Source: an uncultured delta proteobacterium
GTDB lineage: Bacteria; Desulfobacterota; BSN033; UBA1163
Direction of reading: 5' to 3'
Assembly: GCA_963708295.1 (NCBI GenBank)
Contig: CAVPSJ010000015.1
Span: 192,001 to 256,000 of the forward strand
Length of the DNA: 64,000 nt
Shown: positions 5,767-63,006 of the stretch, piece by piece
How positions within the stretch are numbered: position 1 is the stretch's first letter
How the letters are laid out: each line of letters starts with the position of its first letter
Made by a program: the position numbers and the translations under genes
The notes under the pieces: generated by a model
What the model was told of the DNA's origin: nothing
Database searches by the model: none
Seen by the model: the letters and a program-made list of their open reading frames with translations, nothing else

Positions 5767-5770
5767 GTCA

Positions 5771-5957
5771 GGAGTTCATTGAGTTTGTTGTGTTCATTGT
5801 GTTCGTTGGGTTCAAGGAGCAGGTTTAAGGAGTTCATTGAGTTCATTGAGCTCGTTGGGTTAGCAGAGTCTTAAACCCAAGTAACTCAACTAACCCAAGC
5901 AACCCAATAAACCCAGGTAACCCAGTAACCCAATAAGCCCAACTAACCCAGCAACTT
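5771..5957. repeat. 9-mer repeat family A, G/T-rich block followed by its reverse complement
   Basis: GAGTTCATT/GTGTTCGTT units at 5771-5861, then AACCCAAGT/AACTCAACT units at 5874-5955. Confidence 0.9.
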
Positions 5958-6329
5958 ATGAAAATAACTCGGTTTGAAGATATCGATGCCTGGCAGGAGG
6001 CTCGAAAGCTGGTAAAGATGGTTTATGACGTGATTAAAACGAGTCCTAAATTCAGGAAAGATTTCCGATTGGTAAATCAGGTTCAAGACGCTGCGGTATC
6101 GGCTATGTCCAATATTGCTGAGGGATTTGCAAGGCGGAGTAATAGAGAGTTTGTCCAGTTTCTATTTATATCGAAAAGTTCAGCTGCCGAAGTTCAGAGT
6201 CAATTCTATGTGGCGTTAGATCAAGAATACGTCAACGAGGATGATTTTGAAAGGATTTATAATCAAGCTGAAATCGTTTCTAAACTGGATTCCGGTTTCA
6301 TCAAATATCTGAACTCGCAACCTAGATAA
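5958..6329 (+). CDS. Four helix bundle protein #1 (23S rRNA IVS protein / Avd-like family)
   Basis: [54 protein letters not shown]. Confidence 0.92.
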   Translation: MKITRFEDIDAWQEARKLVKMVYDVIKTSPKFRKDFRLVNQVQDAAVSAMSNIAEGFARRSNREFVQFLFISKSSAAEVQSQFYVALDQEYVNEDDFERIYNQAEIVSKLDSGFIKYLNSQPR

Positions 6330-6483
6330 CACGAGCGACTCAAGTAAAAGGGGTTCATTGGGTTCGTTGAGCCTGGTAGGTTTCTCGTGTTAAGTAACCC
6401 AAGTAACTCAATGAACTCAAGTAACCCAAGTAACCCAACAAACCCAAGTAACCCAACGAACCCAAGTAACTCAAGTAACGCAA
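6327..6483. repeat. Family A repeats downstream of FHB#1, running into the exosortase N-terminus
   Basis: GGGTTCATTGGGTTCGTTGA, then (AACCCAAGT)n. TAACACGAG/CTCGTGTTA inverted pair at 6327-6335 and 6384-6392. Confidence 0.9.
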
Positions 6484-7301
6484 TTCGAAGGGGGTTTTTG
6501 AAATCGGCTATTCTTGTTGCCTGTCTCCTCCTTCTCTATTTCCGTGTTTTGCAGGGATTGGTCTCTGATTGGCTCCATCTGCCGGATTTCTCCCATGGCT
6601 TTTTGATTCCGATTGTTTCCCTATATTTTGTTTATGAGAGGCGGAAACAACTCTCAGCCCTCAGCCGTTCCGGTAGCTGGACGGGCTTCGGGCTCTTACT
6701 CCTCGGGATCGTGCTCCTCCTATTTGGAAATCTTGCAAGCGAATACTTCACAATGAGATTTTCGATCTTAGTAGTCCTCGGGGGCATGGTTCTCTTTCTT
6801 TTAGGAAAGGAATGTTTTGGAAACCTTCTTTTCCCTATCGCCTTTTTGATTTTTATGATCCCCATCCCTTCCGTCCTCCTGGACCGGGTCACTTTTCCAA
6901 TGCAACTTTTCGCTTCCAAGGTGGCAGCGAAATCTCTTTACCTGATCGGCATCCCGGCACTGAGAGAGGGCAACGTTATTTTACTGGCAAACACTTCGTT
7001 AGAGGTGGCAGAGGCATGTTCGGGTATCCGGTCTTTGATCTCTTTGCTAGCGCTCTCCGTGGTGTTTGCTTATTTCAGCCAGAATTCAACGTGGAAGAGG
7101 ATTTTACTCGTTCTTTCAACGTTCCCCATCGCGATCATTGCCAATGCCGCACGTGTCACTGGGACCGGAATTCTTGCCCACCACTATGGCGATAAGGTCG
7201 CCCAGGGCTTCTTCCATGGCTTCTCGGGCTGGATTTTATTTGTGGTTGCGTTTATTTGTTTGTTTATTGTGGGAGGGTTGCTATCGAAAATGAAAAAGTG
7301 A
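6411..7301 (+). CDS. xrtA: Exosortase (EpsH/XrtA)
   Basis: DFSHGFLIP, FMIPIP, catalytic VAEACSGIRS, ANAARV, FFHGFSGW; multi-TM. Start is ATG 6411 or GTG 6387. Confidence 0.92.
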   Translation: MNSSNPSNPTNPSNPTNPSNSSNAIRRGFLKSAILVACLLLLYFRVLQGLVSDWLHLPDFSHGFLIPIVSLYFVYERRKQLSALSRSGSWTGFGLLLLGIVLLLFGNLASEYFTMRFSILVVLGGMVLFLLGKECFGNLLFPIAFLIFMIPIPSVLLDRVTFPMQLFASKVAAKSLYLIGIPALREGNVILLANTSLEVAEACSGIRSLISLLALSVVFAYFSQNSTWKRILLVLSTFPIAIIANAARVTGTGILAHHYGDKVAQGFFHGFSGWILFVVAFICLFIVGGLLSKMKK

Positions 7302-7502
7302 GCCAGTGCTGCAGTTCTGCAGTGCTGCTGTCAGGAGGTGCGAATGAAAATAGAGAGGTTCGAGGATATCCAAGGATGGCAAGAAGCACGATTGCTCACA
7401 AAGAAGATTTATGAACTTGCAAATAAGCTCCCCTTCAAGAGAGATAGGGGGCTTTGCAGCCAGATCCAACAAGCGTCGGTTTCCATCATGGCCAATATTG
7501 CT

Positions 7503-7792
7503 GGCTCCGCCCCGTAGGGAGTGGCTCTGAAATGTATTACGTTTACGCATTGCAAAGCGTTTTTAAGAAGCGAATCTATATAGGGCAAACAAAAGACCTG
7601 AATAAACGTTTGCAGTATCACAATAATGGGGCTGTAAAATCAACGTGTAAAGATAAGCCTTGGGAATTAATCGCTTTTCAAAAAGTTGAAAGCATAAGTG
7701 CAGCTAGGTGGATAGAAAGAGACCTAAAAAGGTCAAGAGGGAAAAGGATAAGATGGATTAAAGAAAAAAGTTTGTAGGCTACGCGCCGGAGG
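7503..7792 (+). mobile_element. GIY-YIG mini-element with 16 bp imperfect direct repeats
   Basis: GGCTCCGCCCCGTAGG (7503-7518) and GGCTACGCGCCGGAGG (7777-7792), each followed by GAG. Confidence 0.8.
7532..7777 (+). CDS. GIY-YIG nuclease family protein (81 aa)
   Basis: MYYVYALQS...IYIGQTKDLNKRLQYHNNG...ST...PWELI...E...AR.IERDLK. Confidence 0.9.
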   Translation: MYYVYALQSVFKKRIYIGQTKDLNKRLQYHNNGAVKSTCKDKPWELIAFQKVESISAARWIERDLKRSRGKRIRWIKEKSL

Positions 7793-7999
7793 GAGGGTTT
7801 TGATCGGCAATCCAAGAAGGAATTCAGTAGATTCTTATATTATGCGTCGGGGTCAGCCTCGGAAACTCAAAGTCATCTCTATGTAGCTTTGGATCAAAAG
7901 TATATCTCAGACGTGGATTTTCAGGAGACTTACAACCAGGCAAGGAAGACGAAGAGTCTGATCAACGGCTTTATTTTGTACTTAAAAGGTAAGAAGAAG

Positions 8000-8063
8000 T
8001 GACAGCAGCGCTGTAACACCGCAGTACTTTAAGAAACAGCAGCACCGCAGCACGGCAGCACAC
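8000..8063. repeat. 8-mer family B (CAGCACCG), inverted partner of 7305-7333
   Basis: TGACAGCAGCGCTGTA...CAGCAGCACCGCAGCACGGCAGCAC versus upstream GTGCTGCAGTTCTGCAGTGCTGCTGTCA. Confidence 0.85.
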
Positions 8064-8740: not shown

Positions 8741-9249
8741 GAGGACTGAGGGCCGCGGACTGAGGACTGAGTTAAAAATTATATGACTAATTAATGGGAG
8801 GGGTAAATTATGCCGACAGGGAGAATAGAGAAATTTGAGGATTTAATTGCTTGGCAAAAAGCCAGAGAACTGACCAAAAATGTTTACAGAGTTACTAAAA
8901 TTGGTGAATTCTTGAAGGATTTTGGACTTAGAGACCAGATTAGAAGAGCATCTGTTTCGATTATGTCAAATATCGCGGAAGGATTCGAACGAGGGGGACG
9001 CTCCGAATTTCATCAGTTCTTAGTGATCGCCAAGGGCTCCTGTGCAGAATTAAAATCTCAACTATATGTAGCGTTGGATGCTGAATTCATAGACATAGGA
9101 ACCTTCCAAAGTTTAGATGGCTTGGCAAGAGAAACAAGTCGACTTGTTGGTGGATTGCGTGCCGCAGTTTATAGGCAAAAGATGAAAACAAAATAGCTAT
9201 TAACCTCAGTCCTCATCGCTCAGTCCTCAGTACTCGGTCCACAGTCCTA
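8741..9249. repeat. 7-mer family C (GACTGAG upstream / CTCAGTC downstream) bracketing FHB#3
   Basis: TGAGGACTGAGTTAA at 8761-8775 versus TTAACCTCAGTCCTCA at 9200-9215, with further units out to 9249. Confidence 0.88.
8810..9196 (+). CDS. Four helix bundle protein #3
   Basis: [61 protein letters not shown]. Confidence 0.95.
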
Positions 9250-10456: not shown

Positions 10457-10679
10457 ACTGGGTTTATTGAGTTCCAAATAACAGCAGCACCGCAGCACTA
10501 TTAATGGGTTACTTGGGTTTGTTGAGTTCATTGAGTTTATCGGGTTCAAAACTCATAAGTCAAGACTTGAAGTTAGTAACTCATTAACTCACTTGCTTAT
10601 TTTCTTTTGCCTCATTCCAACAGCAGCACCGCAGCACTTTTAAACAACTCAAAACTCATAACTCACCATTCAAAATTCC
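10457..10679. repeat. Composite intergenic repeat tract (families A, B, F, G)
   Basis: GGGTTACTTGGGTTTGTTGAGTTCATTGAGTT, CAGCAGCACCGCAGCAC x2, AACTCAAAACTCATAACTC. Confidence 0.85.
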
Positions 10680-11798
10680 ATGTTAAATATATTAACCATC
10701 GACCTCGAAGATTACTTCCAGGTTCACGCTTTTTCAAGGGTCATCAGATATGAAGACTGGGACAAATTCGAATGCCGCATCGAACGCAACACCGACCGCC
10801 TCCTCGAAATTCTTAACGGTTCGCCAATAAATGACCGCAGCACAGCAGCACTTCATAACCCATTAACTCATTCACTCAATAACCCATCACGTGAGGTTTC
10901 AGAACCGCAGCGCTGCAGCACTTCATCACCCAATAACTCAATAACTCATTCACTCAATACCTCATTAACTCAAAGGGGCAAGGCGACTTTCTTTGTTTTG
11001 GGCTGGATCGCCGAACGATATCCTGATCTGGTTCGAAGGATTCAAAAAGAAGGTCATGAGATCGCCTGCCATGGTTACGCACACCAGCTTGTCTACACTC
11101 AATCCAGAGACGAATTCAGACAGGACGTCAGGAGAGCCAAATCTATTCTTGAAGATATCACAGGCAAAGAGGTCATCGGTTATCGTGCACCGACTTACTC
11201 CATAACAAATAAGTCAAAGTGGGCTTTTGACGTTCTGGTCGAAGAAGGATTCAAATATGACTCCAGCATCTTCCCGATTCGGCACGATTTCTACGGTATG
11301 CCTGAAGCCCCAAGGTTTCCTTTCGTCGTTTCCTTGAACGGAAACGACAATGTTGAGTTTTCAGTTTTGAATTTTGAATTTAATACTGCATCACTTAATA
11401 ACTCATTAACTCATTCACTTATTAACCCATCATCTGACATTTCAGCACCGCAGCACCGCAGCACCGCAGCACATTATTCAATTATTGAATTTCCCCTTTC
11501 CACCGTGAAACTCTTCGGCGGCAATTTCCCCGTCTCCGGAGGCGGCTACTTCAGGCTGTTCCCCTATTCACTGATAAGAAAGGGTCTCAAAAGCATTAAC
11601 GAGAAGGAAGGGAAGCCATTTATATTTTACATGCATCCCTGGGAGATTGATTTTGAGCAACCAAGAATCAAGGGTGTTTCTCCGAGATCAAAATTCCGTC
11701 ACTACGTCAACCTCAATAAAACTGGATTTAGGCTCAAGAGACTCCTATCCGATTTCCAATTCTCAAATATTCGGCAGCTCTTAACTCAAAATGCATAA
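10680..11798 (+). CDS. Polysaccharide deacetylase, PEP-CTERM locus type (TIGR03006-like), with two repeat-derived insertions
   Basis: [53 protein letters not shown]. Confidence 0.92.
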
Positions 11799-11799
11799 C

Positions 11800-11955
11800 C
11801 TCCTTAATAAAATTTGAATTTTAAGTGTTGAATGTTGAATTAACTCAAAACTCAAAATTGGTGGTTTATTTTGTTATTAAGAAACCGCAGCACCGCATCA
11901 CTGCTTCATCGGTCATTCAAAGCTGGCAACTCAAAATTCACACTTCATAACTTCT
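11800..11955. repeat. 7-mer family F (TTTTGAA/TTCAAAA) inverted tract plus family B
   Basis: TTTGAATTTTAAGTGTTGAATGTTGAATT followed by AACTCAAAACTCAAAATT; CCGCAGCACCGCATCAC. Confidence 0.8.
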
Positions 11956-11967
11956 TTTAAGCATAGG

Positions 11968-11996
11968 TTGACATTTCGTTTTAGGAAGTGTACACT
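11968..11996 (+). promoter_or_regulatory. sigma70 promoter of TA pair 1 with palindromic candidate operator
   Basis: TTGACA-N17-TACACT; the AAGTGTACACTT palindrome overlaps the -10. Confidence 0.75.
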
Positions 11997-12026
11997 TATT
12001 TGAAAAGCGTCATGTGAGGGCTGGCC

Positions 12027-12682: not shown

Positions 12683-12697
12683 ATTCTGGCCGCATCC

Positions 12698-12945
12698 ACA
12701 ATTCAAAATTCATAACTCAAAATTGATAAATTGTTAGCTCATTCACTCAATAGCTCAAGGAACCCAAGTTACCCAACGAACCCAATAACCCGATAAACTC
12801 AAAAACACAGCAACACAGCAGGACTCATTAACTCAATGACCTCATAACTCATTATCTCATTCAAAATTCAAACCTGGTAACTTAAAAACTCAATAACTTA
12901 TTCTTATAAGTACCGCAGCACATAGTAACTCATTCCCTCATCTCC
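12698..12945. repeat. C/A-rich composite repeat tract between the TA pairs (families F, G, A, B)
   Basis: TTCAAAATTCATAACTCAAAATT, AACCCAAGTTACCCAACGAACCCAATAACCCGATAAACTC, ACCGCAGCAC. Confidence 0.85.
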
Positions 12946-12968
12946 TTATGAACGATCTGAACATTCCC

Positions 12969-12997
12969 TTGACAATCTGCCTTGAGTGGTGTACACT
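12969..12997 (+). promoter_or_regulatory. sigma70 promoter of TA pair 2 (probably near-leaderless mRNA)
   Basis: TTGACA-N17-TACACT, GTGTACAC palindrome, ATG at 13007. Confidence 0.72.
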
Positions 12998-13006
12998 GTG
13001 ACTACA

Positions 13007-13706: not shown

Positions 13707-13795
13707 GCCGACCTCACGCATTGCAACACCAATCACCCAAGTAACCCAATAAACTCAAATGACAGCATCACCGCAGTACTTATTAACTTAGGATT

Positions 13796-14896
13796 ATGGC
13801 CACAATCAGATTCTATCAAGATCTTGATAAAGAGCGATGGGATTCTTACGTTTTGAACCATCCCGACGGAACCTTTTTCCACCTCATCGGCTGGAAAGCA
13901 GTCATTGAAAAGACGTTTCGTCACAGATCCTATTATCTCATTGCTGAAAGCAGCGGCAGCTCAAACAACCCAAGTAACCCAAGTAACCCAAGCAACCCAA
14001 GTAACTCAAATAACCCAAGCAACCCGATTGTCGGGATCCTTCCACTTTTTTCCGTCAAGAGCTTTCTTTTCTGCAAATCTCTCGTTTCCGTTCCTTTCGC
14101 TGCCTATGGAGGGATCCTGGCTGATAACCCACAAGCTGCGGGTCAACTCTTCGATAAAGCCAAGGAAATAACCCGCTCCGAAGGGTTAGATTATCTTGAA
14201 CTCAGGAGTAAGGTCGGAGGGATTGATCTTCTACCCCAGAAAGAGCTCTATGTACTCTTCCGAAGAGAAATATTTGAAGACCTTGAATCCAATATGAATG
14301 CGATTCCGAGAAAGTCTCGAAGGATGATACGAGTCGGAGAGAAAGCGGGGTTGAGTTATACGTTCGGCCGTGAAGAATTACTTCCTGAATTTTATGATAT
14401 CCTTGCCAGAAGTTACCATCGACTCGGCAGCCCGGTCTTTTCAATTGAACTATTCGAAAACTTATTGGAACAATTGAAGGAGCAAGCCAACATTTTGCTT
14501 GTCAAGAATCGAGAAGGCAAGTCCATATCCAGCGTGTTGACTTTTTTTTACAAAGATCAAGTCCTTCCTTATTATGCCGGCTCCCTCCTTGAATACAGAG
14601 ATCTGGCTCCAAATGACTATATGTACTGGCAATTGATGCGATATGGATATGAAAATGGCTGCAAGTTATTTGACTTTGGAAGAAGCAAAGTGGATACAGG
14701 ATCGTACGACTTCAAGAGGCATTGGGGCTTTGAGCCAGAGCCTTTACCTTATCAATATTTCTTGAACCGGATGAATGAAATCCCAAACCTCAGCCCGGCA
14801 AACCCGAAATATCAGAAAAAGATCGAGATCTGGCGGAAACTGCCGTTTCTGGCTACTAGAATCATTGGACCTCATATTGTCAAATATATTCCGTAA
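13796..14896 (+). CDS. FemAB-related protein, PEP-CTERM system type (TIGR03019-like), with SNP-repeat insertion
   Basis: TFFHL.GW, LVSVPFAAYGG, PYYAG, FDFGRSK.DTG, FKRHWGF, NPKY. Confidence 0.92.
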   Translation: MATIRFYQDLDKERWDSYVLNHPDGTFFHLIGWKAVIEKTFRHRSYYLIAESSGSSNNPSNPSNPSNPSNSNNPSNPIVGILPLFSVKSFLFCKSLVSVPFAAYGGILADNPQAAGQLFDKAKEITRSEGLDYLELRSKVGGIDLLPQKELYVLFRREIFEDLESNMNAIPRKSRRMIRVGEKAGLSYTFGREELLPEFYDILARSYHRLGSPVFSIELFENLLEQLKEQANILLVKNREGKSISSVLTFFYKDQVLPYYAGSLLEYRDLAPNDYMYWQLMRYGYENGCKLFDFGRSKVDTGSYDFKRHWGFEPEPLPYQYFLNRMNEIPNLSPANPKYQKKIEIWRKLPFLATRIIGPHIVKYIP

Positions 14897-14912
14897 CAAT
14901 ACTTAAGGGAGG

Positions 14913-15437
14913 AGGTGTGAGGTTGGAGGCAAAAGATAATAATCATAAGGTTGCTGCAGGTTCCATGAGAATAAGCGATAAATTTGTATTCCCATTTGAG
15001 AAACTTGAGGTGTGGCAGATGTCAGTTGATTTAGCGGAGAAGGTTCTCGATCTTCTTGAAGGAGTACCTCAAAATAAGCACATTCGTTTAGTTGGTCAAA
15101 TTGAGTCGGCAGTAACTTCTTCAGCGCAGAACATAGCTGAGGGTAGAGGCAGACAATACAAGAAGGAGTTTATCCAATTCTTACATATAGCCCAAGGGTC
15201 CATCTTTGAGGTAGTAACATTGAATGAGATCTTTCGGAGAAGGGCAATCTTTGCAGCTGAGGATACGAATGAGGTCAGATTTCGCTGCGAGCAGATTGAT
15301 CGTAAGTTAAACGGTTTAATTAACTCTCTTCGTGGTAATAAGCGCAAAAAGCCTGTAGGATTCGCCTGATACGTTTCGAATTATGCCTCAGACGGGTATA
15401 GTTGCCTTCGGCCTCAAATGAAGTGGTCCTCACACCT
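14913..15437. repeat. Family D inverted repeats bracketing FHB#4
   Basis: AGGTGTGAGG (14913-14922) / CCTCACACCT (15428-15437); inner GAGGCA / TGCCTC pair. Confidence 0.7.
14965..15369 (+). CDS. Four helix bundle protein #4
   Basis: FPFEKLEVWQ, QIESAVTSSAQNIAEGRGR, KEFIQFLHIAQGSIFEVVT. Start is ATG 14965 or GTG 14917. Confidence 0.92.
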   Translation: MRISDKFVFPFEKLEVWQMSVDLAEKVLDLLEGVPQNKHIRLVGQIESAVTSSAQNIAEGRGRQYKKEFIQFLHIAQGSIFEVVTLNEIFRRRAIFAAEDTNEVRFRCEQIDRKLNGLINSLRGNKRKKPVGFA

Positions 15438-15447
15438 ACAACGGTGT

Positions 15448-15643
15448 GGCAGCAAGCAACCAGCACCCGGCAACCAGAATCGAGTATCCAGTTTCTTGCT
15501 TCTGGTTTCTGGTTTCTTGATCTCCGATTCTAACCAGTAACGAGCAACTAGAAACTAGCAACTAGAAACGAGCAGCAAGCAACCAGCATCCAGCAACCAG
15601 ACAGCCAGAAACCAGCAACCAGAACCAGCAACCAGCAACCAGA
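15448..15643. repeat. 7-mer family E (CAGCAAC/CAGAAAC) with an internal inverted block
   Basis: GTTTCTTGCTTCTGGTTTCTGGTTTC, then (CCAGCAA/CTAGAAA)n directly up to the ATG at 15644. Confidence 0.9.
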
Positions 15644-17111
15644 ATGAAGATTTTATACATCGCCCACCGTATTCCTTATCCTCCGAACAAGGGGGATAAG
15701 ATTCGGTCTTTTAATGAAATAAAGTACCTTTCCCAAAAGCATGAAATTCATCTTACCTGTTTAGCAGACGATCCCAAGGACCTAAAATATGAAGAGGAAT
15801 TAAAAAAATATTGTAAAGCGGTCAGGGTTGTTCTTATCAATCCCCAATTGGCGAAGTTGAAAAGTATCTTTTATCTATTGACCAAGCAACCATTGACCAT
15901 CCCTTATTTCTATTCATCAAAGCTCCAACAGACTGTTGACCAATTGCTATCGACCAATGACTACGATGCAATATTTTGCTTTTCATCTCCCATGGCTGAG
16001 TATGTCTTTAGATCCAGGTTGCTTGTTTCTAGTTTCTTGCAGCTTGATGAATACCGGCAACCAGCGACCAGCGGCCAGCAACCAAAAATCAGTAACTAGA
16101 AACGAGCGACTGGAAACAAGTGACCAGCAACCGGAAACCAGCAACCGGAAACCAGCATCCAGCAACCAGCAACCAAGATTAATCATGGACTTTGTCGACG
16201 TCGATTCAGACAAGTGGGCACAATACTCGAAATATGCACGGTTTCCAATGTCCTGGATCTATGCATTGGAAGGCCGAAGGTTGGCTGATTATGAAAGGAA
16301 CGTTGCGGAGACCTTTGATCATTCGATTTTTGTAACGGAAGCAGAGGTGAAAATATTTAAGGGTAAAAATCCCCATATCCAAAACGTTTCCGTTATCTCC
16401 AACGGCGTTGATCTTGACTACTTTTCCCCCAATTATCTTCACCAGGAATCAACTATCGACCAACGACCATCGGCAAATGAACGAGGTTCTTCGACTATCA
16501 ACCAACATCCAGCAACCATCAACCAGCCTCCGGAAACGAGCAACAAGCAACAAGCACCCAGCACCCAGCCTCCAGAATCAAGCAACCAGCAACCAGTTAT
16601 CGTTTTCACCGGCGCCATGGACTACTATGCCAACATAGACGGAGTGGTCTGGTTTGCAAAAGAAATTTTGCCTTTGATTAAGAAAGAAATCCCTGAAATA
16701 CAGTTTTTCATTGTTGGCAGCAACCCAACGAAAGAAGTTCTCTCTTTGTCTTCAAACAATGGTGTTACGGTAACAGGGTATGTCCCCGATACCAGGGAAT
16801 ATTTAAGTAAGGCGACGGTTGTCGTTGTCCCATTAAGAATAGCCAGAGGCATTCAGAACAAGATCCTTGAAGCCATGGCTATGGGTTTGCCTGTGGTCGC
16901 CACTCCGCAGGCATTTGAAGGAATTGATGCCCGGCCCAAGAGAGATCTGATCTTGGAAGAAAATACAGAGAAGTTTGGGGAGAGTGTAGTTCAACTCATA
17001 AGGAACATCTATCTGAGGAAATGCCTTGGTGATAATGCAAGAAAAGCTGTCGAAGACAACTACAGCTGGGTGAAGAACTTGGGCAAGTTAGACGAAGTCA
17101 TGTCACCTTAG
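15644..17111 (+). CDS. GT4 glycosyltransferase, PEP-CTERM/EpsH1-associated (TIGR03087-like); frameshift inside a repeat insertion
   Basis: AHRIPYPPNKGDKIRS, DFVDVDSDKW, FTGAMDYYANIDGV, ARGIQNKILEAMA. Confidence 0.9.
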
Positions 17112-18323: not shown

Positions 18324-18391
18324 ATGGGTGAAGGAGCCGAATGGGTGAACAAATATTTGCTGGTTCACTACTTACCCATTCAGTTACCATG
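18322..18391. repeat. Small inverted ATGGGTGA / TACCCATT tract
   Basis: AATGGGTGAA x2 after the stop codon, then TTCACTACTTACCCATT before the next start. Confidence 0.6.
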
Positions 18392-18408
18392 GAAGGAAGA
18401 GCGTTGAT

Positions 18409-21563: not shown

Positions 21564-21592
21564 CTCATTCACATTTATAGGTCCATTCACCC

Positions 21593-22966
21593 ATGAAACT
21601 AATGCTCGTTGCCGGTGCTCGCCCCAACTTTATGAAAATCGCCTCCATCATCGATGCGATAAGAGAGCGCAACGATTCAATTGAAAACTCAAAACTCAAA
21701 ATTCAACATTTATTAGTGCATACCGGTCAGCATTACGATGATTCAATGTCAGAAGCTTTTTTCAGAGACTTAAATTTGCCTAAGCCGGATATTTACTTAG
21801 AAGTAGGGTCCGGGACCCATGCTGCCCAGACTGCCGAAATTATGAAGCGTTTTGAGCCAGTGCTGTTGGAGCATCAACCCGATGTTGTTATCGTCGTGGG
21901 TGATGTCAACTCAACCGTCGGTTGCGCCCTCGTCGCCTCTAAAATTACCTATCCAACATCCGGCAGCCGGAAACGAGCAACAAGCAACCGGAATCGACCT
22001 TTGGTCGCCCACGTTGAAGCCGGACTTCGATCTTTTGATCGCACCATGCCCGAGGAAATCAATCGACTTCTAACGGATGCCGTCTCAGATTTCCTTTTTA
22101 CGACTGAAGAAAGTGCCAATGAGAATTTAAGGCGTGAAGGTGTTCCTAAAGATAGGGTTTTCTTTGTCGGAAATACCATGATCGATACGCTCCTTAAACA
22201 CAAGGAAATGGCACAGAAATCGACTATTCTTAATAAGCTTGGCCTTTCAACCAGGAACCAGCAACCAGCGACCGGCAACCGGATACTTCCTTACGCTGTC
22301 CTCACCCTCCACCGTCCATCAAATGTTGACAATAAGGAGACGTTCCGGAATATATTGGAAGCTTTGAAGGAAGTAGCCAAAGATCTTCCTGTTATCTTCC
22401 CGGCCCATCCTCGAACATTAAACCGCATCAGGGAATTCGGCCTTGAAAACTATTTTCATTTTCCGTCTCAGCCTTTAACCCTCAGTTCACAGTCCAAAGC
22501 TGTGCGACCTAATTCCACCAAGCTTCAGCCTCAGAGCTCCAAGGGTGTTGGCTCACTTGCCTCCAACCTTCAACCTCTAGCCTGCGGTCTCCACTGCGTG
22601 GAGCCGCTTGGTTATCTCGATTTTCTCTGCCTGATGTCAAATTCAAAGCTTGTTTTAACTGATTCCGGTGGGATGCAAGAGGAAACCACGGTATTAGGCA
22701 TTCCTTGTATTACCTTAAGGGAGAATACGGAGCGCCCGGTGACCATCGCTTTCGGCACGAATACCCTTGCCGGAATTCAAAAAGACCAAATTATCAGCGC
22801 AGCTCTCTCGGCATTAAGGAAATATGATTCTATATCATCCAATACCGTGTTTAACACTCAGCACTCAACACTCGGCACTCAACACTCATTGTGTCCTCCT
22901 CTATGGGATGGAAAAGCAGGTCAACGAATTGTTAGTATTTTAGTCGATAGTCTATTAGATTCTTAG
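21593..22966 (+). CDS. wecB: UDP-N-acetylglucosamine 2-epimerase (non-hydrolysing) with five repeat-derived insertions
   Basis: GARPNFMK, HTGQHYD, GDVNST, HVEAGLRSFDR.MPEEINR, HRPSNVD, TDSGGMQEE, RENTERP, WDGKAG.RI. Confidence 0.95.
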   Translation: MKLMLVAGARPNFMKIASIIDAIRERNDSIENSKLKIQHLLVHTGQHYDDSMSEAFFRDLNLPKPDIYLEVGSGTHAAQTAEIMKRFEPVLLEHQPDVVIVVGDVNSTVGCALVASKITYPTSGSRKRATSNRNRPLVAHVEAGLRSFDRTMPEEINRLLTDAVSDFLFTTEESANENLRREGVPKDRVFFVGNTMIDTLLKHKEMAQKSTILNKLGLSTRNQQPATGNRILPYAVLTLHRPSNVDNKETFRNILEALKEVAKDLPVIFPAHPRTLNRIREFGLENYFHFPSQPLTLSSQSKAVRPNSTKLQPQSSKGVGSLASNLQPLACGLHCVEPLGYLDFLCLMSNSKLVLTDSGGMQEETTVLGIPCITLRENTERPVTIAFGTNTLAGIQKDQIISAALSALRKYDSISSNTVFNTQHSTLGTQHSLCPPLWDGKAGQRIVSILVDSLLDS

Positions 22967-23058
22967 TCAAGCAACTAACAACCAGCAACTAGCGACGGGC
23001 CGCCAGCATCCAGAAACTGGCAACCAGTAACTAGCATCCAGCAACCAGCAACCAAAAA
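22967..23058. repeat. Family E C/A-rich tract directly before the next ATG
   Basis: CCAGCAACTAGCGAC...CCAGCATCCAGAAACTGGCAACCAGTAACTAGCATCCAGCAACCAGCAACC. Confidence 0.88.
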
Positions 23059-53002: not shown

Positions 53003-53024
53003 CTCATCTTCAAGAACGCGGATA

Positions 53025-53262
53025 ATGAGTGAATAAGCTAAGTGAAAGTGCTGCGGTAATGCAGTGCTGCCGTCAAAAATTCAAGTTAAGAAGTTATTAG
53101 GTTACTGAGTGAATAAGTGCTGCCGTGTTGCGGTGCTGCTGTTGATGTTAAATTGTGAAATTTAAATTATAAGGTTTGGGTGTTAAGTTTTAAGTCAATT
53201 CAACATTCAAAATTTAGAACTTAGAATTTGCGGAGCATGAGTGTTGAGTTCTGAGTTAATTT
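53025..53262. repeat. G/T-rich composite tract after a stop codon (families G, B, F)
   Basis: TGAGTGAATAAG, GTGCTGCGGT/GTGCTGCCGT, TTAAGTTTTAAG then TTCAACATTCAAAA. Confidence 0.85.
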
Positions 53263-53625
53263 GTTGAGGTCGGGATTTGACTTTGCAGACATTGTCAAAT
53301 GTGATGGTGACCTCTTCCTGAAAAGAGTGATTTTTGAGTTTTGTCCTTCGATACGCTCTTCCAAATGGTAATCAATTGTTGTTGAAGTTTCCATTCAATG
53401 CTAATATACTCTTCTTAAATAAGGGCTGATTATGAGGCATTTGTGAAAGCCGATTTCTATAAACCGCCTATTATCTGTTTGAATTCTATCTATGATTTTC
53501 CCTTCAACAAAAGACGCTGAGTCTATTTTTGTTTTGATTGGACTCATCGGAAGGGTTTGGATGTTTGAGAAAAGCCAGATGAGAAGGGTTTGAGGACAGG
53601 ATAAGCTTGGCTTAAGAGGTGCCCT

Positions 53626-54640: not shown

Positions 54641-54670
54641 CAATTAGAGATAGGGTGGAAAGGTTAAATC

Positions 54671-55339: not shown

Positions 55340-55650
55340 AAGATTGACATCCAAATGCTCCTGCAATTCTTTGAGCCGTGAGCGTTATGCTCGCTTTTTA
55401 GTGGTAATTCTTGGTTCCCGATATTCGAAAAAAATGAAGACTTGTTGATGCTATGCTAGATTGCTAGCCCCCTTTATACTGTCTCCATTAGCCCAGCAAC
55501 TCGACAAACCCAGTTAACCTAATGAACCCAAATGACTCAATTTATGCAGTGGTCTTCCACTGCCCGATTTTTGTGCGGATAAAAACAGGTTGACAATACA
55601 TATTATTTGTGATAATTTGGATGTATAATTAGGTAATATTTGGAGGTATC

Positions 55651-56233: not shown

Positions 56234-56272
56234 GTGAAGATTTAGAGCTACTAAGTTAATAAGTAAGTGAGG

Positions 56273-57617: not shown

Positions 57618-57714
57618 CCAAGGTGTCCGTTTTTCTGGGGGAAGAATAGGTGTTAAGAAGGTTTGAGTAAATCCGAAGGTTCAAAATTCGGCTGATTGTA
57701 GCAGAAAGAATGCC

Positions 57715-58748
57715 ATGATCAAAAAGAAGATCACTCGAAGAGAGCTTTTATTGAGGCCGCTGCAATGGCAACCATGGGGGTAGGTTACACCTCTCATCAT
57801 GATCCGCGGCTTGAACGTACTGTTTCAGAAGCTGGGATCCCGTCGAGGATTTTAGGAAAAGCCGGATTAAGTTTATCCATATTGGCATTTGGGTGTGGAG
57901 GCAGATTTATAAAAGGATACCCTACGGAGGAGAAGGCCTTGGAAGTGCTGAACTGGGTATTCAGCAAGGGAATTAATTATTTTGATACGGCTCACGACTA
58001 TGGAAATGGGGAAAGTGAACGCCGATTGGGCTTGTTCCTCAAAGGTCAACGAAAGAAACTGTTTGTTGCTACTAAACTGGGGTCGCGTATTAGGAACAAA
58101 TTTTTGAGCCAGTTTGAGATAAGCTTGAAGCGGTTGCAGACAGATTATGTGGATTTGTTGAACATTCACGGTTTGAGTACCATGGAGGACGTTGCTCAGA
58201 TAGGAAGCAAAGGAGGAATATACGAAAGTTTGGTCAAATTAAGGGAACAGAAAGGGACCAAGTTCATTGGGTTCAGTTGCCACAGTAATGGCCAAGTGGC
58301 AAAGGCAGCTATAGAGCAGTATGACTTTGATTGTTGCACGCTTCAACTCAATGCAGCTAAGATTGGCGGATTTGAAGACATCGCCCTTCCTGCTGCTTTA
58401 AGAAAAAATATGGGAGTGGTAGCGATAAAAGCCACTGGCCAAGATAGACTTTTGGAAAAGGTCCCTGGGAAGGGAAGGATTGAAGAGTTGCTGCGTTACG
58501 TTTGGAATCTGCCAGTAGTTTCCGTTATTCTTGGGATGCCGAGCTTGAAAATGGCCAAACAGGACATTGAATTGGCTCGAGATTTTAAGCGCATGACTCG
58601 CACTGAAGCGGAGGCTCTACGGGACCGGATGGCTCATTTCAGGCCAACTTTAGAACGATTCTTTCACATCACTCCGATTTCGAGACGATATGAACTCAAT
58701 AGATGGAGTTTCTTCTTTTTGTTTCCGAAAAGTTTGAAGATTCAGTGA
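57715..58748 (+). CDS. Aldo/keto reductase with probable Tat leader (frameshift near the start; end uncertain)
   Basis: KITRRE, GINYFDTAHDYG, SLKRLQTDYVDL. Confidence 0.82.
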
Positions 58749-58796
58749 ATAAGGTCAGGTGGAGTTGCCCGATACCGAAAACCGCAGGAGGGGACA

Positions 58797-59966: not shown

Positions 59967-60174
59967 AGAGTTATTAAGTGGATTAGTGCTTTCTTTAATG
60001 TTGAATTGTGAATGTTGAGTTTTAAGTTAATTTAACGTTCTTTGAAGAGTTAATGAGGTAATAAGTTATTAAGTGAATAAGTGCTGCGGTGCTGCGGTTT
60101 TAAGCCGGCGTAAGGTTTAAGGATGGACGTTTTAAATCTGAGTTTTGAGTCAGTTCAACACTAGGAATTCAAAA
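59967..60174. repeat. G/T-rich composite tract after a stop codon (families G, F, B)
   Basis: GAGTTATTAAGTGG, TGTTGAATTGTGAATGTTGAGTTTTAAG, GTGCTGCGGTGCTGCGG. Confidence 0.85.
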
Positions 60175-60286
60175 GCGAAGCCCCCCGCCCACGGGGGCAG
60201 GGCTTCCCGGCAAGGTATTATCATTCATATTGTGCCCCTTCACAACGCCTATCCCTGCTTTGGCGGGGCGGGGCGCGTTCCGGTCA
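60175..60286. mobile_element. ~110 bp palindromic REP/MITE-like insertion inside the repeat tract
   Basis: GC-rich hairpins at both ends; interrupts the TTCAAAA|ATTC context that is uninterrupted at 61520. Confidence 0.55.
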
Positions 60287-60318
60287 AGATTCCTTCAAAA
60301 GTTATTAAGTAAATGAGA

Positions 60319-60354
60319 AGAGCCCGCTGGCTGAAAAGCTGACGGGCTCTCTTC
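60319..60354 (+). terminator. Repeated hairpin, copy 2
   Basis: AGAGCCCGCTGGCTGAAAAGCTGACGGGCTCT. Confidence 0.65.
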
Positions 60355-60485
60355 ATCAAATCGTAAAGATCAGAATTTGACTTTACGCACGTTATCAAGC
60401 CGTACGATAGTTTCCACCCGCCGGAAGAGTGGTTCAGACCACTCGCTTCTGATTTCAAAATCTCATCAATTGAATAAAGAAATGT

Positions 60486-60546
60486 GCGGAAGAGCTTTAC
60501 ATACATGAGGGAACCGATTCGAGAATTTTGTGAAAATCATTTCCAC
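60486..60546 (+). promoter_or_regulatory. Candidate enhancer (PrsR-type bEBP sites) for PEP-CTERM gene 1
   Basis: GCGGAAGAGCTTTACA ... TTTTGTGAAAATCATTTCCAC, conserved with 63861-63922. Confidence 0.65.
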
Positions 60547-60642
60547 TTTTCAATTTCAATGAAATAATGAGTATTTGAGAAACATTTTGAATTATGTCTA
60601 CTTTACAGCAACTTAGAATGAATTAACAGCATTTGAGACTTT

Positions 60643-60659
60643 CTGGCATCAAAATTGCT
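60643..60659 (+). promoter_or_regulatory. sigma54 -24/-12 promoter
   Basis: CTGGCATCAAAATTGCT (GG-N10-GC). Confidence 0.8.
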
Positions 60660-60740
60660 TAATTTTTATTTCGGTTTGTTATACATTTATTTCTGATTTC
60701 ATCGGATCCCGCAGCCAAAAACTGAAGGAGGTAAGAAGGT

Positions 60741-61473
60741 ATGAGGGGAAAATTAGGTGTACTCTTAGTTGTCTTAGTGCTTTTCGGGATGATTGGCATT
60801 GCAAGCGCTAGTAACATTCTTTATTTCAACGATCTTGTCGTTGGTACTGATAGAATGGGGGGAGCCCTCGCAGCATTAAGTGGCACACATTCCGTGACAA
60901 CAGTGCTTAGCTCGTCAGCTTTTGCTACTCAAATTGCTTCAGGCAGTTACCAACTGGGAATTTTAATGGTGCAGAATTCATTCGGCAGGTACTTATGCTG
61001 ATGGAATCAATGCATTAGGGACCTTCGTGGCAGCGGGTGGACGCTCAATCTATACCGATTGGAGCAGGGATAGCAATTATGCTCCCCTATTTGGCGCACA
61101 ATGGACAGGCGGCATTAATCAAAATACCATGACCGTGTTAGACCCCGCTCTGGCTGCCGGCATCACCAATCCCATCTCTCTTATCAATCCGGGATGGGGT
61201 GTCTACTCGATGGATGTAAACGGAGATTCCATTGGAGCTACATTTGGAGATGGCAATGGAGCGATTGCATTCGGCATTTCCGGACGCAGTATCACAAACG
61301 GTTTCCTTACGGACACATTTTCGGACGGCGCTCAGGGCGTTAGGCTTTATGAAAATGAAGTAGGCTACCTTTTAGGAGCTGCGCCCATTCCCGAACCCGC
61401 TACCATGCTTCTTTTAGGGTCTGGGCTGATCGGATTGGTAGGATATGGGAGGAGAAAGTTCTCTAAAAGATAA
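60741..61473 (+). CDS. PEP-CTERM protein, frameshift ~60990
   Basis: Signal peptide; C-terminal PIPEPATMLLLGSGLIGLVGYGRRKFSKR. Confidence 0.92.
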
Positions 61474-61546
61474 TTATGAGTTATGAGTCTTGAGTTTTGA
61501 GTTAATTCAAGGCTGAGAATTCAAAATTCTTTAGGAAGTAAACAAA

Positions 61547-61586
61547 AAGAGCCCGTTGGCCGAAAAGCTGACGGGCTCTTGGTTTT
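61547..61586 (+). terminator. Repeated hairpin/terminator, copy 3
   Basis: AAGAGCCCGTTGGCCGAAAAGCTGACGGGCTCTT + GGTTTT. Confidence 0.75.
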
Positions 61587-61742
61587 ATTATATATTGTTT
61601 TTCAGAGGCAACCTTCACACGATTGGAAACGATGGACTCAGACCCTAGAAGGTCTGGACAATGGCTAGTATATTAAATCACAGCTGTCCAATTCATGAAT
61701 AATCGGGAAGTAATCGTAATTTCATTCAGTGGTATGATTCCC

Positions 61743-61982
61743 TTTACACCAGGACCCAGAGCGAGGCGTGAGGAGATTTCACTGCTTCAAACGGCCACCG
61801 CTCAGTGAGCATATGGCTAGGAGAGGAGATGGCGATGGAGCAGAAACTACATTCTTCGGGAGACTGAACCTTTGATGGCTGTGGATTATCAGATTTAGGA
61901 TGACAGAGTTTTAAGGCGGGATCTCTCGCCGAATAAAAACCTGTCGCGTTACCTGCGACTCTGCAGTGAAAATTCTATTTTG
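61743..61982. mobile_element. Degenerate copy 2 of the 38454 element
   Basis: Shares CGGCCACCG(G)CTCAG.GAGC.TATGGCT.GGAGAGGAGA.GGCGAT(T)GGAGCAGAAACT and the GTGAAAATTCTATTTTG end. Confidence 0.7.
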
Positions 61983-62856
61983 CAGCTCGGTATTAATCAA
62001 TCCAGGAGCATATCCTCTTGAAGATTGTTGACGAGACCAAGTGGTATATTTTCACTCCGATAGAGGAGTGTTGCTGAACTGACGCTTGTGCAAAAGCCCA
62101 TATCATACCGAGAATTGGCGGGAAGCTCAGAGATGGCTGAAAGGGAGTGCTTCGAGGCTCTGAAGCGTTTCAAGCGAGGACGCCGACCACGAAAGGAATT
62201 GTTTCAAATCCGGATCTAGTTCGAAGAAAAGACTGATAGGGCTCCGAGGAAGAAGAACAAGTGGTACTCTGAATCTCTGGAAAATGAGTTTGCATATCAA
62301 ATCTGATGGCGGTCCATCACAATTCGTGTGGAAATGTGAATCAGGAGTCATGAGGGTTCTCCTAATCAAGGGGCATCCGTTCCCGTTCAGAGGTGCTAAG
62401 TCACCGGCCTTAGCACGTGGAGTTGATATTCATTTGCTGTTCGAATTATGCCGTGAAGAGCACGTTCCAGCGGATGACCTCAACAGCCAGAAATGGAGTC
62501 TGCCTCTGACGGGATACTAGGTCAATGTCTTTTACAACCAACTGAGGCTCTTCTCATAGCCTAAAACAAACGCATTAAATATTTTAACGTCGCACGAGTG
62601 TATTGCGAGCCCGAGAGGACCGGCAATCCCATTTTACGTTGGATGCTTAGTCGCTCAGCTTCTTGCAATGACCCGCCACAAAATTCCTTATCTCTTTGCC
62701 TGGCTTCCAAAGGCATAAAGTGTAAGCACTCTATACTGTTCACAAATCTGCTTTAAACCCTGATGAAAGCTTTTCATAATCTTAATGGTGACGTGTTAAT
62801 TAGTTATGCCGGGTAATTTCTTAACTAAAATACCACTGTTTTTCATTCTTGTCCAT

Positions 62857-62892
62857 AAACAAAAAGCCCACCAGCCTTTCGGCCGATGGGCC
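62857..62892 (-). terminator. Repeated hairpin/terminator, copy 4
   Basis: Minus strand GGCCCATCGGCCGAAAGGCTGGTGGGCTTTTTGTTT. Confidence 0.72.
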
Positions 62893-62898
62893 CTCCTC

Positions 62899-63006
62899 AT
62901 TCCAATAACTTAATTAACTTCCTAACCTAAACTCTTAACTGCAACACCTTAATTTAATAACTGATTAACTTATTAACTCAATTACTTAATTACTTAATAA
63001 CTTAAG
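62899..63006. repeat. Family G 8-mer tract after the stop of a minus-strand gene
   Basis: Minus strand TTAAGTTATTAAGTAATTAAGTAATTGAGTTAATAAGTTAA. Confidence 0.8.

Follow-up and report, generated by a model that had tools for sequence, protein, structure and literature searches.

Short-word arrays in a polysaccharide locus

We analyzed a 64,000-nt stretch of DNA (the window) from an uncultured wetland bacterium, in which a slime-synthesis gene cluster is dense in short tandem word repeats. The repeats are arrays of 7-9-nt words that fall into at least six families in the window, with word sequences varying from gap to gap. Genome-wide, these families have 42 longer arrays, 27 of them in this XrtA/PEP-CTERM polysaccharide locus. 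Sequence inspection and a tandem-repeat search located arrays where an initial annotation of the window had placed them. Tandem Repeats Finder returned 37 rows for the window, 23 of them with a period of 7, 8 or 9 in the regions singled out by that annotation, and 1271 rows for the whole genome, where 7 is the commonest period (223 rows). Unit copies run head-to-tail, as in tandem arrays of the STRR or TAACTGA kind. An Rfam search of the window matched no rRNA and no other family.

C/A-form arrays contain 32% C and 13% G over 1754 nt, and G/T-form tracts after stops contain 26% A, 11% C, 26% G and 36% T; "G-poor" and "C-poor", respectively, are apter labels. Per 100 nt, the C/A form holds 1.0 potential start codons and 0.3 SD-like motifs, compared with 5.0 and 2.4 in the whole window. 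The arrays are not themselves intrinsic terminators: in 52900-63800, terminator-like sites are separate hairpins downstream of G/T arrays, and inspection of the operon's word-array hairpins found no T run.

Table 1 Arrays, four-helix-bundle cassettes and intragenic inserts of the window.
Position	Strand	Feature	Remarks
5767..5865	+	G/T-form arrays, 9-nt family (complement of AACCCAAGT)	Begin 1 nt past TIGR03013 glycosyltransferase stop
5874..5957	+	C/A-form array, AACCCAAGT type	Ends at ATG of four-helix-bundle gene 1; no SD
5958..6329	+	Four-helix-bundle gene 1 (TIGR02436)	E 9.5e-30
6345..6483	+	Short G/T arm (6345-6378), then long C/A array (6392-6483)	Toward xrtA
7302..7332	+	Cassette 2 5' arm, complement of CAGCACCG words	Begins 1 nt past xrtA stop; arms z -3.6
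7344..8002	+	Four-helix-bundle gene 2	Split by GIY-YIG ORF 7535-7777
8003..8063	+	Cassette 2 3' C/A arm, CAGCACCG words	Ends 11 nt before epsI ATG; no SD
8741..8775	+	Cassette 3 5' G-rich arm, GAGGACT words	Arms z -6.4
8810..9196	+	Four-helix-bundle gene 3	E 3.9e-31
9204..9248	+	Cassette 3 3' arm, CCTCAGT words	Ends 11 nt before aminotransferase ATG
10457..10679	+	Mosaic gap: G/T words, embedded C/A word, C/A words up to deacetylase ATG	Fold z -0.9
10827..10976	+	In-frame C/A-word insert 1, XrtA-system polysaccharide deacetylase	
11340..11480	+	In-frame insert 2, deacetylase	Short G/T arm, then C/A words
11799..12026	+	Gap after deacetylase: G/T words, then C/A words	5' of Phd/PIN pair 1
12683..12985	+	Lone C/A tract, 303 nt, several families' words	Between two toxin-antitoxin pairs; unstructured (MFE -28.9 kcal/mol over 303 nt, z 0.1)
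13707..13795	+	C/A tract	Leads to FemAB-family gene
13952..14029	+	In-frame AACCCAAGT insert, FemAB-family gene	Encodes SNPSNPSNP...
14897..15369	+	Cassette 4: G-rich 5' arm (14897-14966), four-helix-bundle gene 4 (14968-15369)	Arms z -2.1
15370..15643	+	Gap after gene 4: 5'-arm partner ~15427-15438, G/T arm 15488-15522, long AACCAGC array	Array ends at stp1 ATG
16016..16184	+	Hairpin insert, stp1 glycosyltransferase: G/T arm, then AACCAGC array	z -2.4; reading frame breaks here
16464..16601	+	In-frame C/A insert 2, stp1	
18324..18408	+	Small G-rich / C-rich hairpin, stp2-amidotransferase gap	Fold z -0.4, not significant
21564..21592	+	Lone C/A words	Fill gap before wecB
21671..22897	+	Five in-frame WecB inserts	21671-21718, 21953-22006, 22244-22288, 22463-22600, 22838-22897
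22967..23058	+	Lone AACCAGC tract	Fills wecB-stp3 gap; fold z -1.2
53010..53290	+	Long lone G/T-form tract, several families' words	After gene stop
55490..55545	+	C/A words ~105 nt upstream of VapB start	Ahead of promoter-like sequence picked by eye (absent from scan listing)
56234..56270	+	G/T words directly 3' of PIN gene stop	Then terminator-like hairpin
59967..60175	+	Lone G/T tract	3' of gene stop
61474..61530	+	G/T words 3' of PEP-CTERM gene stop	Then terminator at 61547-61580
62899..63006	-	G/T-form words (minus-strand reading) 3' of minus-strand PEP-CTERM gene stop	Then terminator-like hairpin

Four window genes match TIGR02436/PF05635, the 23S-rRNA-intervening-sequence type (E 1e-26 to 3.9e-31). 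All four are enclosed by complementary arrays (duplex z -2.1 to -6.9), and inverted repeats were detected at three of the four cassettes. At the first, the region 6345..6483 pairs at long range with 5767-5865 through the inverted repeat 5778-5812 / 6450-6484 (outer arms z -6.9), and the gene-less gap made up of 5767-5865 and 5874-5957 folds with -57.8 kcal/mol (z -4.5). The whole genome has 15 TIGR02436/PF05635 matches, representing 13 genes; we inspected the flanks of all 13. Each gene is co-directional with both neighbors. ORF-carrying 23S rRNA intervening sequences of Coxiella burnetii (S23p/PF05635), which are regarded as a selfish element, likewise place a small four-helix-bundle gene of this family within complementary arms that form a long stem (PMC4990558). 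Unlike the elements described there, the four cassettes occupy gaps between protein-coding genes in the polysaccharide operon, not a 23S rRNA helix, and their arms are tandem word arrays.

Five genes carry read-through inserts, opposite which 8-10 of the 11 aligned homologues have gaps; WecB reaches 457 aa against a 366-position model. Both arms, G/T then C/A, occur in only two of the 11 insert segments (11340-11480 and 16016-16184). The WecB orthologue of the congener G012 carries inserts at the same loops, but mostly of other words. Rickettsia palindromic elements and similar repeat DNA lie in frame within conserved enzymes and are read through as surface-loop peptides. The inserts described here share this in-frame, read-through placement in conserved genes; unlike those elements, they are runs of differing short words and lack a conserved dispersed palindromic consensus of 100-150 bp.

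Array orientation at gene ends and within genes

The initial annotation described C/A-rich repeats running up to start codons and G/T-rich repeats beginning just after stop codons. The first half of this pattern is strong: the 40 nt upstream are C/A-rich at all eight starts it named (keto skew -0.15 to -0.65), and at seven of these the skew is no higher than the 4th percentile for 3559 genes from the rest of the genome. The second half holds only in part. Over the 40 nt downstream of the 12 named stops, keto skew averages +0.20 and is above zero at 11 of them, but just five reach the 92nd percentile; at 10457, where the tract is broken by a C/A word, the value is for that reason negative.

We then counted orientation in the window against curated genes, keeping 37 arrays and setting two aside. 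Within 60 nt of a start, 10 arrays are C/A-sense and one is G/T-sense, the latter being a cassette 5' arm. At stops, the same distance yields seven arrays of each sense, so the rule for stops holds only at hairpins or operon ends. As had been claimed, the C/A form dominates inside genes (11 arrays versus one in G/T-sense); folding and inspection by eye revealed a second intragenic G/T arm at 16018-16050. Six genes are directly preceded by G-poor arrays, and an SD core is present in none of them, compared with ~60% of confident genes genome-wide, a figure inflated by the SD bonus of the crude purpose-made caller used outside the window. Translation of these six must therefore start on G-poor leaders, and there are hints that such leaders are used, not merely tolerated.

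The pattern does flip at the minus-strand PEP-CTERM gene (62899-63006). Elsewhere in the genome, window families obey the orientation rule at all eight informative minus-strand sites (a ninth, C5:138977, is too distant from any called gene to score), and in a congener they obey it at three of five. No window-family array lies beside a start in G/T-sense unless a stop is nearer. Fixed-orientation, SD-less arrays upstream of starts are found for window word families only. When all short-period arrays outside the window are pooled, those within 25 nt of gene ends show no bias between G/T and C/A (72:64 at stops, 41:53 at starts), and at 26-60 nt the trend is reversed (15:35 and 38:20). The orientation rule is not general to the genome's repeats.

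We also considered a general filter against G/T arrays beside start codons, which did not stand up: genome-wide, 20 G/T-sense versus 23 C/A-sense arrays lie within 25 nt, and the density of start codons shows no sense-antisense difference.

Hairpin symmetry and arm polarity

Among the strongly skewed inverted repeats of the genome (n = 34), 29 are C/A-first, all outside the window, and five are G/T-first, one of them in the window. The larger hairpin class has its C/A arm after stops and its G/T arm before starts. Paired arms of the window families are G/T-first in 11 cases versus one elsewhere in this genome, and in 11 versus none in the congener G003. Arm polarity follows cassette lineage in a test of 10 four-helix-bundle proteins, only two of them from the opposite-polarity class: the proteins of the two A/C-first cassettes share 36% identity, compared with 15-25% to those of eight G- or G/T-first cassettes, which show 18-56% identity among themselves.

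We lean towards the explanation that the transcription-following look of the arrays comes mostly from the mirror symmetry of hairpins, together with coding-frame tolerance, and not from a dedicated RNA function. The arrays would belong to hairpin-forming elements, comprising four-helix-bundle cassette arms, gene-less hairpins alike in build, and single arms or fragments. The families concentrated in this locus have a common polarity, their G/T-rich arm lying on the 5' side and their C/A-rich arm on the 3' side. Because reverse complementation leaves this layout unchanged, the G/T form lies by the upstream stop and the C/A form by the downstream start in every copy, whatever its strand and the arrangement of genes around it. 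The flip at minus-strand genes is then automatic, and uninformative on transcription or replication. The initial annotation had argued from this flip that the repeats act as RNA, an argument that fails for paired arms, since a G/T-first inverted repeat is alike on either strand. Its view that orientation tracks transcription and not the replichore fares better: window-family orientation is non-random at gene ends on both strands and therefore unlike a replichore effect, although the automatic flip of paired arms lends this no weight.

Inserted DNA fills operon gaps from stop to start because these gaps are short, and a surviving single arm would keep its original position. Lone arrays would accordingly be remnants or local copies of arms, and a dedicated RNA function would be unneeded. 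Polarity goes with the cassette or repeat lineage. The cell does not require one polarity, since this genome also contains lineages of the reverse kind, and this opposite class argues against a general RNA need such as Rho-site masking. Two observations fit hairpin symmetry less well. Lone arrays follow the rule more cleanly than random one-arm deletion predicts, and uniform multi-family tracts (C/A at 12683-12985, G/T at 53010-53290) are awkward to explain as independent arm losses.

Within genes, a second filter operates, in which only the G-poor form yields stop-free hydrophilic loop peptides. As read, the 11 insert segments encode peptides with a mean hydropathy of -0.26 to -1.93; when they are inverted, 21 of 33 frames contain stops and most of the others are hydrophobic (up to +1.94). 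The C/A sense of intragenic copies is explained by this capacity to encode hydrophilic, stop-free loops.

STRR and long heptanucleotide simple-sequence repeats of cyanobacteria, Xanthomonas and Geobacter are likewise abundant 7-nt-period arrays, intergenic with some intragenic (PMC4692102; PMC2700814). Those of Geobacter are often paired and of unknown function (PMC2700814). The arrays described here keep one polarity per family, in step with cassette lineage; the account of heptanucleotide repeats in PMC2700814, as far as it describes their arrangement, states no link to gene direction or cassettes.

RNA-level and replication-level alternatives

A first alternative, which we regard as unlikely, is that the arms act as RNA brackets. 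The post-stop G/U-rich arm would pair with the pre-start C/A-rich arm in the polycistronic mRNA and loop out the cassette or spacer, bringing stop and start together for translational coupling or providing RNase III with a cleavage site, as 23S rRNA intervening sequences do. The arms lie close against the genes, starting 1 nt past stops (5767, 7302) and stopping 0-11 nt short of start codons, their duplexes are far more stable than shuffled controls, and the co-directional genes they enclose are of the family found in rRNA intervening sequences that RNase III excises (PMC4990558). However, any DNA inserted into a short operon gap would abut stop and start, pairing is indifferent to polarity, and the larger hairpin class has the opposite one. 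Many arrays are also partnerless and unstructured (12683-12985 and 22967-23058), and the wecB-stp3 array is wholly absent in the congener G012.

It is decidedly unlikely that the C/A arrays serve as SD-independent leaders or as tracks for single-strand RNA-binding proteins of the S1, Csp or CsrA type, with the G/T forms as by-products. The arrays leave 0-14 nt to the start codon, replace the SD in the six genes above, and are unstructured and poor in start codons and SD-like motifs. TAACTGA heptamer direct repeats of marine Beggiatoaceae, cyanobacteria and Bacteroidetes are placed in the same way; MacGregor (2015; PMC4679880) described for them a comparable orientation rule and a coding-frame filter on heptamer orientation, and an RNA-binding-protein or SD-independent role has been proposed for those of Beggiatoaceae. 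As in that account, tandem short words lie mostly between genes in a fixed "forward" orientation, stopping a few nt or less from start codons and taking the place of the SD, ORF-internal orientation is set by the encodable frame, and arrays combine related words; one word of the present set, TAACTCAT, resembles TAACTGA. Here, by contrast, there are periods of 7, 8 and 9 nt, the ORF-internal form is the one preceding starts and not the reverse as in Beggiatoaceae, and many arrays are inverted arms or hairpins around four-helix-bundle genes, a link that the description of TAACTGA placement in PMC4679880 does not include. At least six word families, differing by gap, are moreover a poor fit to one specific binding protein; G/T-sense arrays of other families abut starts in this genome, array presence changes between congeners, and one C/A array lies upstream of the promoter-like sequence (55490..55545).

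Rho loading (rut) sites for operon polarity control, masked by the G/U-rich partner or by translation, are very improbable. The arrays do have the C-rich, G-poor composition of such sites, with C-containing words every 7-9 nt, and lone tracts of 90-300 nt, such as 12683-12985, are unstructured over the ~80 nt or more that a rut site takes; in a congener, the polysaccharide locus encodes a NusG paralogue with such a hairpin directly 3'. Yet no NusG paralogue was found on this contig, most C/A arrays lie within translated sequence or touch start codons, and the opposite-polarity class has its C/A-rich arm directly after stops with no preceding mask.

We give almost no credence to orientation by replication, through a slippage bias between leading and lagging strands with gene-replication co-orientation producing the match to transcription: nearly all window genes are on one strand, but replication cannot orient paired arms, because these are strand-symmetric, and minus-strand sites follow the gene. 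GC skew in the draft assembly tracks local gene strand and does not delimit replichores; at C1:117631, a minus-strand gene in a region of positive GC skew and plus-strand gene majority, the array still follows the gene.

Word arrays and cassettes in an exopolysaccharide locus

The source genome, G000, is a 4.95-Mb draft of 20 contigs (C1, C2 and so on); the window covers positions 192001-256000 of contig C15, and at window positions 1-32000 it carries a canonical XrtA/PEP-CTERM exopolysaccharide locus with all genes on the plus strand. Between the locus genes lie four genes of TIGR02436, the four-helix-bundle family that 23S rRNA intervening sequences (IVS) carry. We call such a gene, together with the complementary word-array arms on its two sides, a cassette. 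The repeat load of the locus is extreme: four cassettes and three toxin-antitoxin pairs, plus 11 or more translated inserts across five conserved enzymes. This makes it well suited to the study of processing, coupling and phase variation.

Features of the window and example hairpins elsewhere in the source genome
Feature	Position	Strand	Remark
Chain-length determinant, tyrosine kinase	XrtA/PEP-CTERM locus	+	
TIGR03013 priming transferase	XrtA/PEP-CTERM locus	+	
Exosortase A, EpsI	XrtA/PEP-CTERM locus	+	
Aminotransferase; TIGR03006 deacetylase; FemAB-family protein	XrtA/PEP-CTERM locus	+	
stp1, stp2, stp3 glycosyltransferases	XrtA/PEP-CTERM locus	+	
TIGR03108 amidotransferase; WecB	XrtA/PEP-CTERM locus	+	
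Four TIGR02436 four-helix-bundle genes	5958-6329, 7344-8002, 8810-9196, 14968-15369		between locus genes
Two Phd/PIN pairs	12027-13706		embedded among arrays
Third toxin-antitoxin pair, VapB/PIN	55651-56233		embedded among arrays
IS3-type transposase and two PEP-CTERM protein genes	55-64 kb		
Recurrent terminator-like hairpin	56275-56310, 60318-60355, 61547-61580; 62860-62895	+ (first three); - (last)	terminator scan listed one copy
A-rich C/A-first hairpins, examples	C14:10737-10852, C4:671135-671309, C8:250772-250894		

In the C/A orientation, the repeated words are AACCCAAGT (9 nt), CAGCACCG and TAACTCAT (8 nt), and CCTCAGT, AACCAGC and AACACTC (7 nt). BLAST with tandem probes placed 27 of the 42 arrays of at least 20 nt from these families in the window, a 1.3% share of the genome, and the bin C15:200-220 kb ranked first among 20-kb bins with 14 strongly skewed arrays. 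A count of 12-nt word clusters was dominated by chance matches in ordinary sequence and was discarded in favor of clusters of at least 20-24 nt; strict regular expressions for the families gave only 29 arrays, too few for use. At the gathering threshold, no Rfam family was found in the window.

The 5′ arm is complementary to the 3′ arm in each of the four window cassettes, with duplexes of far lower energy than shuffled arms give (z = -3.6, -6.4, -6.9 and -2.1). The gap at 5767-5957, which contains no gene, folds at z = -4.5, and the stp1 insert at z = -2.4. Other arrays are partnerless and essentially unstructured, including 12683-12985 (303 nt, z = 0.1), 22967-23058 and the first deacetylase insert. 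Between 53 and 63 kb, lone G/T-form tracts follow stop codons, upstream of separate terminator-like hairpins. Four near-identical copies of one such hairpin, GAGCCC...GGCCGAAA...GGGCTC, each stand just 3′ of a G/T-form array. The first Phd/PIN pair is bordered by complementary TTGAATTTT and AAAATTCAA words.

Contigs from four metagenome runs match the window in short pieces, 88-99% alike, with depth inflated across arrays. Joints that omit the cassette at 5958-6329 (5794 to 6431 and similar) were discounted, their sides being just 21-32 nt long and within repeats. An 80-aa GIY-YIG ORF (7535-7777) interrupts the second four-helix-bundle gene at a conserved ANIAEGF-type motif (7518-7793), and contigs of all four runs join 7501 to 7793, so GIY-YIG-free forms seem to exist in related strains. 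Two further genes are split: the amidotransferase (TIGR03108, 628 positions; 18409-20284) falls into two parts, 18409-19173 and 19166-20284, the split lying outside any word array, and the plus-strand PEP-CTERM gene at 60741-61473 consists of two ORFs, 60741-61001 and 61027-61473.

Array orientation at gene ends

The initial annotation had proposed that the G/T form follows stop codons and the C/A form precedes start codons, according to the transcribed strand. The 40 nt upstream of all eight starts it cited are C/A-rich, and seven of them rank no higher than the 4th percentile among 3559 genes from the rest of the genome. Within 60 nt of the starts of curated window genes, we found ten arrays that are C/A-sense (relative to the adjacent gene) and one that is G/T-sense; inside window genes the counts are 11 and one, with an extra short G/T arm at 16018-16050. 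The C/A half of the proposal, before starts and inside genes, is thus strong. Of the 12 cited stops, 11 are followed by 40 nt with G/T enrichment and one (10457) by a stretch of negative G/T skew; the effect is modest (mean +0.20), and five sites reach the 92nd percentile or above. Within 60 nt of curated stops, seven arrays of either sense were counted, an even split that arises because several C/A tracts occupy whole gaps. The G/T half therefore holds only at hairpins or operon ends. At the minus-strand PEP-CTERM gene (62899-63006), where the pattern had been said to flip, the array orientation is real.

A larger sample limits the rule to particular families. The genome-wide strand-bias check on all short-period arrays of G000 outside the window found neither the G/T nor the C/A orientation favored within 25 nt of gene ends (G/T:C/A 72:64 at stops, 41:53 at starts), and at 26-60 nt the trend is opposite to the rule (15:35 at stops, 38:20 at starts). 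Among 34 strongly skewed inverted repeats in G000, 29 are C/A-first and five G/T-first. About 19 of the 29 have A-rich heptamer arms (AAACTCT, AAATCCG and AAATGTC types) and loops of 36-130 nt, several of which have a common conserved core, and about eight are C-run/G-run palindromes. At one of these palindromes, C4:557985, a C/A arm begins 1 nt past a stop, and its G/T partner ends 32 nt upstream of the next start. The class of C/A-first hairpins with A-rich arms, whose loops are about 70-130 nt, outnumbers the window's families.

Across G000, the window's own families form 11 G/T-first pairs and one C/A-first pair. Elsewhere in the genome they agree with the rule at all eight informative minus-strand sites: four lone arrays have the G/T form just past the stop (C1:117631, C5:82678, C7:217399, C17:438509), and at four genes the C/A form lies 10-34 nt before the start (C11:229679, C14:112265, C8:154749, C4:266716). 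A ninth site, C5:138977, was left out as too distant from any called gene. Outside the window 33 arrays were retained; 12 of them are C/A-sense within 60 nt of a start and four are G/T-sense at that distance, each of the four nearer to the upstream stop (-2 to 9 vs 19-56 nt).

The congener G003 is rich in the 9-nt family (85 forward and 46 reverse pattern matches). Its 11 fetched regions contain 11 adjacent G/T-then-C/A pairs, with the reverse order seen only at spacings of 134 nt or more, and nine arrays 10-34 nt upstream of a start, all C/A-sense. Of five lone arrays at minus-strand genes in G003, three fit the rule, one is ambiguous and one, a short intragenic match, does not fit. Another congener, the nearly closed G010, has two matches of the 9-nt family. 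For the replichore test, GC skew in the draft follows local gene strand and yielded no origin or terminus. These larger-sample results assign the rule to particular repeat families, not to transcription in the organism: the orientation observation is real but family-specific.

Symmetry, reading frame and cassette lineage

A hairpin composed of G/T arm, loop and C/A arm reverse-complements to the same order of G/T arm, loop and C/A arm. This invariance places the G/T form by the upstream stop and the C/A form by the downstream start on either strand, and also in convergent and divergent gaps. The minus-strand flip is then a mathematical consequence, unable to separate transcription from replication or from nothing. 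A single arm whose partner has decayed stays on its own side of the gap and obeys the same rule, and in a tightly packed operon any stop-to-start insertion will adjoin both.

Copies inside genes are subject to coding constraints. In the deacetylase, FemAB, stp1 and WecB, 11 insert segments encode N/P/S/T/Q-rich peptides (mean hydropathy -0.26 to -1.93); when inverted, they have stops in 21 of 33 frames, and most open frames are hydrophobic (up to +1.94). Passages of a report on TAACTGA repeats (MacGregor, 2015) make a coding argument on orientation too. The WecB inserts sit at homologues' gaps or variable loops, and the nearest WecB orthologue, in the same-genus genome G012, has inserts at the same sites as G000. 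The first (21671-21718, IENSKLKIQH) is kept in both protein and DNA words, the remaining inserts at common sites have different words in the two genomes, and the wecB-stp3 array is absent in G012. Inserts at such tolerant loops are thus subject to turnover. In stp1 (15644-17111), the reading frame is split into 15644-16099 and 15936-17111, broken within an array of AACCAGC heptamers; a +1 shift separates the two frames, as a change of one 7-nt unit would produce, and the break could reflect phase variation, a pseudogene or an assembly error.

In many uncultured bacteria, short-period repeats take up the space between genes, and what they are for is a long-standing question. A transcription-linked orientation rule would have argued strongly for RNA function. 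The proposal that orientation tracks transcription instead largely reduces to symmetry and coding constraints, and this case shows how an apparent rule can arise without RNA function, from invariant polarity and a reading-frame filter on intragenic copies. Future claims of transcription-linked repeat orientation will need evidence both from unpaired arrays and from families of either polarity. What our analysis adds is the invariance of polarity under reverse complementation, the coexistence of two classes with opposite polarity in a single genome, and a link between polarity and cassette lineage.

G000 encodes 13 four-helix-bundle genes with flanks of both polarities. Most of the cassettes are G- or G/T-first, the exceptions being the A/C-first ones at C12:13011, C13:219452 and C14:209986. 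When 10 of the proteins were compared in an identity matrix, the two A/C-first members were mutual nearest relatives (36%); their identity to the other eight is 15-25%, and those eight are 18-56% identical among themselves. Judged from these protein sequences, polarity goes with cassette lineage in this small sample (10 proteins, two of them A/C-first). All 13 genes run in the same direction as both flanking genes, an orientation rule that is genuine and lies beyond the symmetry argument. Such co-direction would follow from selection for being transcribed or from a transcript-mediated insertion mechanism.

RNA-level readings

Six genes that stand right after G-poor arrays have no SD core (four-helix-bundle gene 1, epsI, the deacetylase gene, stp1, wecB and stp3); the core is found in about 60% of confident genes, a figure inflated by the gene caller's SD bonus. 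Potential start codons number 1.0 per 100 nt in the C/A form and SD-like motifs 0.3, compared with 11.0 and 1.0 when inverted. Two several-family tracts of single orientation, 12683-12985 and 53010-53290, are hard to explain by arms having been lost one by one. The SD-less leaders, the start-codon contrast and these uniform long tracts keep RNA-level readings alive, the candidate roles being stems that act as brackets, leaders that work without an SD as proposed for the TAACTGA repeats, and rut-like sites.

In one specific version of the bracket reading, which we consider improbable, the arms would be IVS-like mRNA brackets whose long-range G/U-C/A stems loop out selfish cassettes (four-helix-bundle genes and toxin-antitoxin pairs), leaving host genes coupled or RNase III-processed, and the four-helix-bundle (Avd-like) protein may aid cassette spread via the transcript. 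If true, transcript-borne spreading would explain why all 13 copies are sense-oriented in host operons. Parallels to the arrays and cassettes as such appear in four publications: the TAACTGA repeats (MacGregor, 2015; PMC4679880), paired heptanucleotide arrays in Geobacter (PMC2700814), heptameric repeats in Xanthomonas and Nostoc (PMC4692102), and a Coxiella 23S rRNA intervening sequence carrying S23p (PMC4990558).

The rut-like reading draws on composition, the C/A form being G-poor (G 13%, C 32%) and the G/T form C-poor (C 11%). A search of the window's contig for a NusG paralogue possibly countering Rho (PF02357) found none. A general translation-initiation filter behind the C/A form before starts, suggested by the leaders, was rejected on family-agnostic tests: with every family included, arrays that lie 25 nt or less from a start are not depleted in start codons on the sense strand (36 fewer, 41 more), and the strongly skewed ones divide into 20 G/T-sense and 23 C/A-sense.

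In G003, the 9-nt-family G/T-then-C/A hairpin recurs in many intergenic gaps of C4:775001-815000 (fetched regions L016-L017), a segment with Mu GemA, amidase and phage capsid genes. The polysaccharide locus of the same congener encodes a 165-aa NusG paralogue (L013:11407-11997, a fetched region of G003:C2), with a G/T-then-C/A hairpin 33 nt past its stop.
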